This document shows positions 15,051 to 18,000 of a stretch of DNA of 32,000 bases, in pieces. Both the position numbers and the translations under genes were made by a program. Positions within the stretch are counted from its first letter, which is position 1, and every line of letters starts with the position of its first letter. The stretch comes from Fibrobacter succinogenes subsp. succinogenes S85 (GTDB taxonomy: Bacteria; Fibrobacterota; Fibrobacteria; Fibrobacterales; Fibrobacteraceae), in the NCBI RefSeq assembly GCF_000146505.1, contig NC_017448.1:3660001-3692000 (forward strand), read 5' to 3'. The notes beneath the pieces were generated by a model that worked only from the letters and a program-made list of their open reading frames with translations, was not told the origin of the DNA and did no database searches.

Positions 15051-18000
15051 ATGGAAACAAGTTTTTATTCTTGGATTAGAAAAGGCCTTGGTAGCCAAAT
15101 TAACGAGATTGATAATCTCGGAGAAACATCTGATAAAACTGAAATAATAGATAATGAAGCAAAAAAACGCGCTACAGTACAGCTGACTACAGTTGTTAAA
15201 GCCCGGTTACTTGAATCTGGAGAAACGTCTTCAAATTCTGAATCTGATTCGTCTGATTCAGAGAAGTCAGAAATGGACTTTATTCTTAATGGAATTGATG
15301 AGTCCAATAAAAAGGATGTTCTCAATGCAATTTCTTCATTTGCTAAGGTTAATCTTACTAAAGCGAATGAAATTGTTGATTCACCCAATAGTTTTTTCAG
15401 AAAAACGGTATCAAAAACAGAAGCCGAAACTTTTAAAAATAACCTGAATAAATTAGGTGCGAAGGTTGTTTTGGTGAATGTTGTCACAAGAACGGAATCC
15501 AAAACTATAGCTCTTTCTGGCCCTAGCGATGTTATATCGTTAGATTCTAAAGCAATTGCTCGCGTGTTTCCTACTCCTGATTTTGATGCTTTCCCAAAAG
15601 ATGAATATCCATATGTTGAATTTTGGGAACCTGATTTCGCTTGGCGTTTTACTCCGGCGAAGGCTGCTGAAAATGGAAAGAAATTACGTCCTTGGCTTGC
15701 ACTTGTTGTTTGTGAATCCTCAAAATGTTCTATTGAAAAAACGTCTTGGGGAACTGAACTTGTCACGTTTAATGTTGAAAGTGATGTCGAGTATAAGAAT
15801 GTTTTCCCGAATCCTGCTGATGTATGGTGCATGGCTCACGCTCAGAGTAAAAAGGGCGAGGATGCGGAATTTTGCCGTATTCTTGGTGTGAAAAGTAATG
15901 CTATGGAACGGAATGCTGAATATCGTGCTTTCTTGATTCCTGTTTTTGAAGTCGGTCGACTTAGAGGACTTCGTGGTCCTAATTATGATGAAAATGCAGA
16001 TCAAACTGAACGAAGTCTGAATAATATTGCTGTTCAGACCTCTGCTTGGGAAATTAGTCTTGATGAACAAAAGAAAAAACATGAATCGCCTTTGACTTTC
16101 CCCTCGTATTATTCATGGAATTTTAGAACGGGTGATTTAAGCTTTGTTGAAAAGGTCAGATCTCTCGTATGCAATGATGCAAAGAAAAGTGGAATTGATG
16201 TTGATGTCACTTCTTTGGGTGAAGGCTTGGATTATGCTGTTTTGGCGAAAAAGCCTACTCGCAATAAAATCAATATGCCTGCAGCGTTGACAACGGTTAA
16301 GAGTGCTGCTGAAAGTGCTTTCCCCAATTCAAGTTCTGATGAAAAAGATGTCTATGATCATTTAAATAGTTTACTGTCCAAAAGTCCTGTCTTTGAAGAA
16401 AATGCCAAATTGGTAAGTAACGGATCGAATTCAAATGTTGATAGCGGAGATGATCCGTGGATTACACCACCGATTTATGGTGGTAAACACGTTCTTGCCA
16501 CATCTTTGGATGAGAAGAAAAATGCAAAGACTCCCTGGTTAAATCAGGTTAATTTGGATCTTCACTATCGTGCTGCTGCGGGACTTGGCAAAAAGGCTGT
16601 ACAGAGAAATCAAGAGGAACTTGTAAATCGAGCTTGGAAGCAAATTGATGCTATTAAAACATTAAATGCAGAACTGAATCAAAAAATGCTCAGTACTAAT
16701 GTTAGTGACTCTGTGAAGTATATGAATTACAGTTGGGCAGGGAAAAAAGATGTAGCGATAAATACGAATGATTCTGCAAATAAAATGGTTGTACGGATGA
16801 TGAAGAATCTATCGCTTATGAAAAATACGAAATTTGGAAAGAATAAAAAAGAAAAAGGAACTTCTTTAGCCGATGTTATGGACGCTATGAAAATTCCTGA
16901 CGCTTTTGCATCCATTTCTTTCCAAAATACTACTAAAAAAGCTTTGAAAAAAGATGATGATTCCTCAGTGTTGGGGCTTATTGCGGATAGTCAATGTTAT
17001 AGGAATAACGGTTTGCCTTTTGCGAATACTTTTAATGTTAACAATTTGTCTAGATTCAAGGATTGGCTTCATCCATATCTTTTAAAGTATCTTGTAGTGA
17101 AAACTCCTTTGAATATGTTATTTGAATGGAATGAAAATCAAAGTGTTTTGAATTGTATATCCGTAAAAGCATTAAGCTATGTCTTTAGATATCAGGATTG
17201 TATTAATCGTGTTGAAAATAGAAGTTCGCGAGTCCAATTAGCATGGAACGGTGTTCAAAATTATATAAATACTTTGTATTCTGGTAATAGTCGGCCTGCT
17301 GAATATTTTGCAAATAAAAGATTATGGGAAATTACTACTTATGGGTATACGGAAGAAAGTAATCCGAATTTTAAAAGTAATTATACTAGTTTTCTTGGCG
17401 GAAATGTTAATGTTTATGCGCTAGATAGTTCTGTTTTTAAAGAAATGTTTTATACTAATGGAACTCCGACTGTTGCCAAATTTTATGGATTGAATGGAAA
17501 AAAATCACCAGTGTTTTTTATAGACCGAGATCGAGCTAAAAATGTCTCGTTCTATAGACTGGATGGCAGAGGTAATTTGGAATCTATATCCAATGTTGTA
17601 AATGAAAATTTCCAAAATGTAGGAAGTATTTTGGAAATAAAAAAACGGCAATCTGGGTTTAGTACTGTAGAACAAGAAGCTCTTTTATGTCATGCCACAT
17701 TGTTTATGCCTGATTATGTTTATGTTAAGGAAGCTTATTTGAATAATCAGTGTACTGCCGATTATACCTTTAGTGATATGAATGATTTTTACACAAAAAT
17801 GGCTAAAAAAATCGGTAATCAACATTCAAAATTATACGATGCATGGGTTGAATTGGTGAAAGTGACTACGGCCTATGTTCCTAAAACCGACCCTATTAAG
17901 TCCATACAACGTGATAGTGATGCCTATAATAAGGTTGAGTCTTTGAAAAATGGTCTTAGGGATGATTCTGCATATGCACGATTGAAAGAATGTGCAGATA

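Follow-up and report, generated by a model that had tools for sequence, protein, structure and literature searches.

The genome of Fibrobacter succinogenes subsp. succinogenes S85 encodes, in the 32,000-nucleotide stretch of contig NC_017448.1 that we analyzed (positions 3,660,001 to 3,692,000, hereafter the window, whose first letter is position 1 in what follows), a 1265-amino-acid (aa) protein with a piece of the ribosomal stalk inside it. The piece is a genuine but strongly diverged homologue of the bL12 C-terminal domain (CTD), bL12 being the protein known in Escherichia coli as L7/L12. An in-frame insertion of some 74 codons brought it into a natively disordered acidic loop of its host, where that loop joins the first two blocks of conserved beta-strand. 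The host is a cytoplasmic protein and subunit two of a cassette, about four genes long, that was apparently acquired horizontally. In other versions of this cassette, seemingly interchangeable translation and transcription modules occur at the termini or linkers of three of the subunits: EF-Tu, the RNA polymerase alpha-CTD and the bL12 CTD. The reading we favor, to which we give a probability of about 50%, is that the S85 module acts as a flexibly tethered protein-interaction domain that would link a giant complex to a partner in the gene-expression or translation apparatus, and that either the partner or the mode of binding differs from the canonical contact between L12 and the translational GTPases.

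Sequence and fold of the L12-like domain

Positions 15273-15479 on the plus strand translate into MDFILNG...KVVLVN, residues 75-143 of the 1265-aa open reading frame (ORF), a segment that the initial annotation had likened to the CTD of E. coli RplL from the letters alone. Profile searches bear the likeness out. Residues 76-141 match positions 2-66 of the 67 in the Pfam profile PF00542 (Ribosomal_L12) with 34.1 bits (E 3.4e-8 for the whole protein), above the curated gathering cut-off of 25.9 bits, and the score rises to 39.4 bits (E 7.6e-10) when residues 51-150 are excised and searched on their own. Public pre-computed annotation already flags PF00542 on this protein, and the L12 segment is the only part of the host through which Pfam gives a match. 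When PDB sequences are searched with phmmer, the E. coli L7/L12 CTD (1ctf) is found at E 1.9e-5 with a single one-residue gap, along with T. maritima L12 and further bL12 chains. Counting on the alignments gives the same identities to the E. coli protein as had been announced: 14 of 41 positions in the C-terminal block, and six of nine in the short N-terminal stretch where EKSEMDFIL faces EKTEFDVIL. Two parts have been retained, namely the hydrophobic core and VSKxxAExxKxxLxxxGAxV, which is the beta2-alpha6-beta3 block. The match is far beyond chance.

The predicted fold agrees with the sequence. In a single-sequence AlphaFold2 model of residues 1-250, residues 72-143 form the beta-alpha-alpha-beta-alpha-beta succession of an L12 CTD, with strands at 72-82, 114-121 and 137-143 and helices at 84-98, 102-110 and 122-134; confidence is moderate, the mean predicted local distance difference test (pLDDT) of 10-residue blocks ranging from 52 to 72 over residues 71-140, and the 1-250 model is poor overall. 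The top PDB matches of the module model in Foldseek are bL12 CTDs, with template modeling (TM) scores of 0.72-0.83, and the superposition on 1ctf that had been proposed as a check gives a TM score of 0.82, a root-mean-square deviation of 1.9 A and 31% identity. Structures of ClpS come after the bL12 matches (TM 0.5-0.66), which raises the thought that the module might bind N-degron peptides or a Clp-type unfoldase as ClpS does. Their identity to the module is 10-17%, against about 30% for bL12, and a Pfam scan of the module returns Ribosomal_L12 and no ClpS family, so that the likeness exists at the level of the fold only; we consider a ClpS-like role extremely improbable.

The module belongs to the PF00542 family and is not a bL12 protein. 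It shares with the bL12 CTD an identity of about 31% to the E. coli domain, the fold, the hydrophobic core, the conserved block given above and a flexible acidic tether. It differs in several respects: against the full-length bL12 model TIGR00855 it scores 32.7 bits where the cut-off is 84.4, and covers only profile positions 50-123; Pfam reports no N-terminal dimerization and L10-binding domain; and whereas bL12 is a stand-alone protein of ~120-130 aa encoded beside rplJ and rpoB, the module sits inside a 1265-aa protein flanked by giant genes. A further difference, the replacement of all five scored positions in helices 4 and 5, is taken up below.

A word-indexed homologue search with the module returned only P0100, a 121-aa fragment of the same gene; HMMER, run exhaustively over 1.84 billion representatives, brought up 43 proteins. 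Three of these (P0101, P0134 and P0106) proved spurious, being of low complexity or made of other repeats, and were dropped. The best true matches come from outside the ribosome, from proteins that contain between one and seven L12-CTD-like domains (P0130, then P0102, P0103, P0109, P0113 and P0114), and the exhaustive search ranks them no lower than genuine bL12. Nearest to the module is the domain at the C-terminus of P0130, with 42% identity; genuine bL12 proteins reach 37-39%. Among the partner domains in these non-ribosomal fusions are caspase, Ser/Thr kinase, Big_5, LRV and a Zn-ribbon that comes with a hydrophobic tail at the C-terminus. Bacterial fusions of this kind usually carry the domain in tandem and mostly keep the factor-binding signature, as do most of the tandem proteins; the S85 module is a single copy, has none of the five signature residues and lies in an unrelated host.

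Embedded L12 domains have been described before. In phages, bL12 domains are variably placed inside larger polypeptides, and homologues of their flanks lack the domain, which points to independent acquisitions; these domains are ~30-40% identical to cellular bL12, and the residues contacting uL11, EF-G and EF-Tu are reported to be kept (Mizuno et al. 2019, PMC6375957). For one cyanobacterial orthocaspase, too, Ribosomal_L12 is given among the accessory domains (PMC8283722). The S85 module bears the same marks of an accessory L12 module, PF00542 within an unrelated protein and homologues of the flanks without the domain, and so resembles the phage domains in being embedded in a larger non-ribosomal protein; unlike them, it lacks the factor-contact signature and belongs to a bacterial chromosomal cassette. 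A tblastn search of phage genomes with the module gave only two weak matches, at 34% identity, and no relative of the 1265-aa host was found among IMG/VR viral contigs.

Several features of the related proteins deserve mention in their own right. In P0102, P0105, P0113, P0114 and P0137, two to seven tandem L12 CTDs are joined to a caspase, a Ser/Thr kinase or LRV repeats, and at least two such fusions are annotated in NCBI as 'ribosomal protein L7/L12', for example the 593-aa, seven-domain WP_346660302.1 of Nannocystis pusilla; the biology of the tandem fusion proteins appears unstudied. The gene for P0130 (L169:1-7235) adjoins a serine recombinase (resolvase) and a helix-turn-helix gene in a small element of 37% guanine-plus-cytosine (GC) content. 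Three genes of this element contain an in-frame TAG and no gene there ends in TAG; judging from this pattern, the element probably belongs to a phage or is otherwise mobile and has TAG recoded, a hint that a divergent L12 subtype may circulate on mobile elements.

The insert, its selection and its helix 4/5 surface

The initial annotation had also read the domain as an insertion, since it lies between two host segments that are conserved; the 99 homologues detected for the 1265-aa protein agree and mark the insertion as accessory. This family is conserved over residues 1-50, 151-650 and 1001-1265, with G12, D21, L23 and R40 invariant or nearly so, and hypervariable over residues 51-150 and ~651-1000. 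Here 149 aa separate the RKG and GPxD motifs, against 47-85 aa in the homologues for which both anchors were located, and phmmer found an L12-like segment in none of the 99. Protein alignment leaves residues ~72-145 without a counterpart in the eleven closest relatives. In the DNA alignment, against L088 and the contig of P0001, a 72%-identical relative, the insert of ~74 codons stands out as a clean gap of ~222 nucleotides that preserves the reading frame. Only the F. succinogenes S85 lineage carries it (L081-L084, L087 and L089). An AlphaFold2 model of P0001, built from a 56-sequence alignment (mean pLDDT 82.6), indicates what the site was like: residues 51-60 fall below a pLDDT of 50 and are flanked by strands at 35-45 and 65-75, the aligned residues 35-45 being a beta-strand, which puts the domain in a disordered loop at the surface. 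At 0.32, the GC content of the insert falls inside the gene's own range (0.36 +/- 0.035) and is therefore uninformative on its source. The central third of the family, corresponding to residues ~651-1000 (17001-18050), is a separate site of variation in both sequence and length, with 579-1166 aa between the LRPW and WREYPTD motifs.

One part of the earlier description did not survive the alignment. The acidic Ser-rich stretch ahead of the domain had been taken for an L12 hinge imported with it. Homologues without the domain carry an equivalent short acidic or Ser-rich linker at the same place, and we rejected that interpretation: the stretch is the native variable linker of the host family.

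Once inserted, the module appears to have been maintained. The metagenome contig L089 carries a 98%-identical gene that includes the module, and between it and S85 residues 72-145 differ by five synonymous and three non-synonymous substitutions, a ratio of non-synonymous to synonymous proportions (pN/pS, Nei-Gojobori) of 0.16, as compared with 0.13 for the remainder of the protein. Three or fewer non-synonymous changes out of eight would be expected under neutrality with a probability of 0.014 (binomial test). On this comparison the module is under purifying selection, behaves like the rest of the protein and is not decaying. A second contig, L087, was set aside for this purpose as too similar to S85, short (597 bp, metagenomic) and chimeric at one end.

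Selection bears directly on the simplest account of the insert, namely that a small and very soluble fold was captured by chance and kept as a spacer or solubility aid with no specific partner. Such a passenger would be at home in a disordered loop whose length already ranges from 47 to 85 aa among homologues, and the lost functional signature, the restriction to one narrow lineage and a GC content indistinguishable from that of the gene all suit it. It is harder to square with purifying selection equal to that on the rest of the protein, with L12 CTDs acquired independently by another subunit in another phylum, and with a bias of the captured domains towards EF-Tu, alpha-CTD and L12 that chance alone hardly explains (see below). 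We regard this account as unlikely.

What sets the S85 module apart is its helix 4/5 surface. We aligned 110 L12-like domains to a small bL12 profile and scored the five positions most conserved in helices 4 and 5, which are, in E. coli numbering, a hydrophobic residue at 66, K/R at 70, R/K at 73, E/D at 82 and K/R at 84. These positions are reported to contact EF-Tu and EF-G, in work by Kothe et al. 2004, Diaconu et al. 2005 and Helgstrand et al. 2007. E. coli bL12, with V66, K70, R73, E82 and K84, scores five out of five, as do the genuine bL12 proteins P0129, P0131 and P0139. The S85 module reads K, N, S, K and N, hence zero out of five, with a reversal of charge at E82. All five residues are kept by 64 of the 110 comparison domains and four by another 20 (at least four in 84/110); the only other zero belongs to a 19-residue fragment, which leaves the S85 module unique among complete domains. 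It also has the lowest score of any full-length domain against the L12 hidden Markov model, 27 bits as compared with ~32-133 for the best domain of the other matched proteins.

The initial annotation had suggested that the tethered copy serves as a docking site or decoy for IF2, EF-Tu, EF-G and RF3, recruiting them or titrating them away from ribosomes through the canonical helix 4/5 surface, and had named non-conservation of that surface as the observation that would tell against it. Largely this is what the residues give, and the suggestion is weakened. Part of the context speaks for it: the homology of the module to the bL12 CTD is real, and a flexible linker holds it in a protein of the cytoplasm; sister cassettes carry EF-Tu, the natural partner of L12, or L12 CTDs in which the GLKEAKD motif and the basic residue 70 are intact; and the signature is kept by most L12-like domains of non-ribosomal proteins, an indication that these do bind factors. 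With none of the five residues left, the charge at E82 reversed and the lowest profile score of the set, canonical docking of IF2, EF-Tu, EF-G or RF3 by the S85 copy is unlikely on sequence grounds, and as an explanation of the module we rate it as highly doubtful. The same replacements make it probable that the module meets another partner, or binds its partner in another manner, than in the canonical contact between L12 and the GTPases. The other option left by the initial annotation, that the fold is simply reused, is no complete account either, given purifying selection and the modules of sister cassettes.

The cassette and its captured modules

The 1265-aa protein is one of a set. On one strand, and in a fixed order, the cassette comprises a DUF6603 gene, the 1265-aa family, a ~1500-aa family (called here after its 1517-aa member) and a ~650-aa family (after its 667-aa member). 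Scans with the family alignment found relatives of the 1265-aa protein at at least 593 loci of species-representative genomes and at least 591 metagenome loci; 160 of these more than 1,180 loci were inspected for synteny and modules, and the four-gene order is kept in most of them. The phyla concerned are Bacteroidota, Actinomycetota, Proteobacteria, Acidobacteriota, Chloroflexota, Cyanobacteria, Gemmatimonadota, Verrucomicrobiota and others. In S85 the cassette lies in a block whose GC content is 0.32-0.42, compared with 0.46-0.55 in its flanks, which suggests that it was acquired horizontally. Relative to other DUF6603 cassettes, the S85 lineage adds the L12 insert and an extra 796-aa gene, the latter confined to S85-like contigs and close relatives: tblastn found no match to it in the 80 genome loci and located it in 9 of 168 loci, mostly S85 itself or near-identical contigs, and a similar gene stands upstream in the contig of the close relative P0001.

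Databases say little about these proteins. DUF6603 (PF20248) is the only Pfam family that names any part of the cassette. Pfam scans of the 796-, 1512- and 665-aa proteins gave no significant family, and NCBIfam gave none for these three or for the DUF6603 protein. Neither a profile of the 1265-aa family searched against PDB chain sequences nor phmmer searches of the other three core proteins against PDB sequences returned anything significant, and the P0001 model has no Foldseek match at E <= 0.001 in PDB or BFVD. The cassette proteins have no match in PHROGs. PADLOC-DB 2.0 yields a single weak signal, ZorA-like and confined to the DUF6603 protein (E 4.6e-5, no one stretch passing by itself), and leaves the other proteins unmatched. 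We found no paper on DUF6603 or on the locus tags Fisuc_2602 to Fisuc_2606. A homology between DUF6603 and the 1265-aa family that clustering had suggested proved to be an artefact, since direct BLAST shows none.

Inspection of the other cassettes revealed that the S85 insert has counterparts. Within the 1265-aa family, two members (P0014 and P0015) bear the RNA polymerase alpha-CTD at the N-terminus and no EF-Tu; P0030, P0032, P0034, P0035 and P0046 carry full EF-Tu and alpha-CTD domains at their C-terminus; and P0043 has EF-Tu alone, with the P-loop lost. Some of the EF-Tu modules are degenerate, DCPGH having become DCPGN or DCLGY and NKCD having become SKCD or DNCD; in P0030, for instance, the catalytic His is replaced by Asn (DCPGH to DCPGN). 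At one locus (L085:10001-21572) two adjacent subunits each bear an EF-Tu module, and the two modules are 52% identical to each other. The member of the 1265-aa family has it at the C-terminus, with DCPGH and NKCD intact and an alpha-CTD nested in EF-Tu domain 3, and the member of the 1517-aa family has it at the N-terminus in degenerate form (DCLGY, DNCD). A similar pair of EF-Tu matches occurs at L092.

The third subunit to have captured a module brings L12 back. In the Bacteroidales metagenome-assembled genome RUG13867 (L028:19109-21553), a protein of the 667-aa family contains two near-identical L12 CTDs in tandem (Pfam 123.9 bits). They are inserted between residues 266 and 457, at a point that in the S85 protein is an inter-domain linker of 18 residues. 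These domains are 44% identical to E. coli L12 and retain the basic residue K70 and the GLKEAKD signature. Located in a different subunit and a different phylum, they represent an independent acquisition. Over the inspected loci, EF-Tu, alpha-CTD or L12 modules have thus been gained independently by three of the four subunits, and their place is always a terminus or a linker.

Precedents exist for the use of such proteins outside translation. Q-beta replicase recruits EF-Tu together with EF-Ts. The Avs7 complex, likewise, has taken over EF-Tu, as one of its structural subunits (PMC13581612). As in the cassette, an abundant translation protein is put to use in a non-translational complex; the difference is that in those two systems the factor is recruited in trans and the mechanism has been demonstrated, whereas here the copies are covalently fused and are known from sequence.

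The Avs7 case also makes EF-Tu a known target or cofactor of defense systems (PMC13581612), and it can be asked whether the cassette is itself a conflict system in which the EF-Tu, alpha-CTD and L12 modules mimic the targets of phage or toxin effectors, so that an attack on this bait would trigger the complex. Plant nucleotide-binding leucine-rich repeat receptors (NLRs) carry integrated decoys, and the idea is modeled on them. It would account for the recurrent and independent capture of host-core modules on several subunits, for the catalytic degeneration of some EF-Tu modules, as expected of a bait rather than an enzyme, and for the low-GC island, the patchy distribution across phyla and the hypervariable central region at ~651-1000 of the 1265-aa family. 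Yet PADLOC offers one weak ZorA-like match and PHROGs none; family scans of the four core proteins found no nuclease, NADase, protease or pore effector domain; the S85 neighborhood is not a typical defense island; and most cassettes have no such module. A bait for effectors that recognize the conserved surface of L12 should, moreover, retain that surface. By this analogy an integrated bait is conceivable for the S85 module, though quite unlikely. A broader version, in which the cassette as a whole uses captured copies of host proteins either as integrated baits or as docks to ribosomes or coupled transcription-translation complexes, we would put forward only as a speculative possibility. If it were true, the rewritten helix 4/5 surface of the L12 module would be a specificity variant of bait or dock, and the cassette, with more than 1,000 loci in at least eight phyla, would be a bacterial counterpart of the plant integrated decoys in a new protein machine.

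We come back to the tethered interaction domain with a non-canonical partner or binding mode as the preferred reading. Hydropathy scans detected no signal peptide or transmembrane segment in the 796-, 1265-, 1517- and 667-aa proteins, which would place the L12 module where ribosomes and their factors are. Sister cassettes with EF-Tu, alpha-CTD and L12 CTDs make the context point to a link with the translation apparatus. From the combination of a folded and tethered L12 domain under selection, a cytoplasmic host and a cassette that captures translation and transcription proteins, we infer an interaction module and, with it, the binding itself. A number of observations weigh against this reading. 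Versions that bear modules are a minority, about 9 of the 99 members of the 1265-aa family and 4-5 of the 160 loci, and no L12 domain occurs in the best 120 homologues of the 667-aa family. Accessory domains are not all related to translation, as the distant homologue P0095 carries SH3_15 and Tachylectin instead. The 72%-identical relative does without the insert, which must therefore be dispensable for the cassette. The helix 4/5 score of zero, where 84 of 110 domains reach at least four, means that the sequence of the module itself does not indicate a translation factor as partner. The selection test is based on just eight substitutions. Finally, the host has no fold match in PDB or BFVD and the cassette no meaningful match in PADLOC or PHROGs.

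The module alone is one more accessory bL12 domain, of a kind already visible in Pfam architectures and phage proteins. Its interest lies in the fact that every signature residue of the factor-binding face has been lost and the module is nevertheless under purifying selection, from which it would appear that the L12 fold can serve a use beyond the textbook contact. The larger lead is the cassette, an uncharacterized set of giant proteins common across bacterial phyla, three of whose four families have no Pfam family. The independent appearance of EF-Tu, alpha-CTD and intact L12 on three subunits provides a testable handle on it, suggestive of an interaction with, or a surveillance of, the gene-expression machinery.

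Gene layout of the window and variable neighbors

The features of the window that concern the module and the cassette are collected in Table 1.

Table 1. Coordinates of the L12-like module, its host gene and the surrounding cassette in the window
Feature	Position	Strand	Remarks
Two paralogous small genes	5627..7105	-	233 and 242 aa; C-terminal ~100 aa match a module of the 796-aa protein
Low-GC island	6001..25000		GC 0.32-0.42, 0.46-0.55 in flanks; covers the cassette
First cassette gene, DUF6603 protein	7307..12580	+	1757 aa; PF20248 at E 2.5e-97; upstream of the 1265-aa family in 73/80 genome loci
Gene of 796-aa repeat protein	12626..15016	+	lineage-specific extra, between DUF6603 gene and host gene
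Host gene	15051..18848	+	1265-aa protein, second conserved cassette subunit; identical protein in S85 record CP001792.1
N-terminal conserved block	15051..15200	+	residues 1-50 (SFYSWIRKGLGSQI...RxTVQLT); alignment occupancy 0.89
Variable acidic/Ser-rich native linker	15201..15263	+	residues ~51-71 (ARLLESGETSSNSESDSSDSE); equivalents in domain-less homologues
In-frame insert of ~74 codons	15264..15485	+	residues ~72-145; from protein and DNA alignments and spacing statistics
bL12 CTD homologue	15276..15473	+	PF00542 envelope, residues 76-141; K88, N92, S95, K104 and N106 replace the helix 4/5 signature
Third cassette gene	18850..23388	+	~1512-aa protein; mechanical ORF start 18835; no Pfam family; syntenic in 78/80 genome loci
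Fourth cassette gene, Fisuc_2606	23403..25400	+	665-aa protein; no Pfam family; syntenic in 69/80 genome loci

Upstream of the cassette and divergently oriented from it, the two small paralogues (5627-6328 and 6377-7105, both on the minus strand) are 52% identical to each other and have no Pfam family. In blastp their C-terminal ~100 aa are 40-45% identical (E 1e-20 to 1e-24) to residues 336-438 and 687-787 of the 796-aa protein. A second patch of low GC content, at 1001-2000, falls within a 677-aa ORF (470-2503, plus strand) that has an N-terminal signal-like segment, a C-terminal hydrophobic segment and no Pfam family; it is followed by a gene for a DUF1353 protein (2554-3120, plus strand), and neither of the two was found near the cassette in the 80 genome loci.

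At other loci the region upstream of the DUF6603 gene is variable as well (L006, L027, L032, L033, L038, L043, L062, L035 and others). A ~510-aa family, often duplicated and with a weak match to the protease-like Nal1_C, precedes the cassette in 16 of the 80 loci; elsewhere the position is taken by genes for M64-like peptidases, PhoD-like phosphatases or a 1038-aa family, all of their Pfam matches being weak. These variable genes might encode cargo or effectors.

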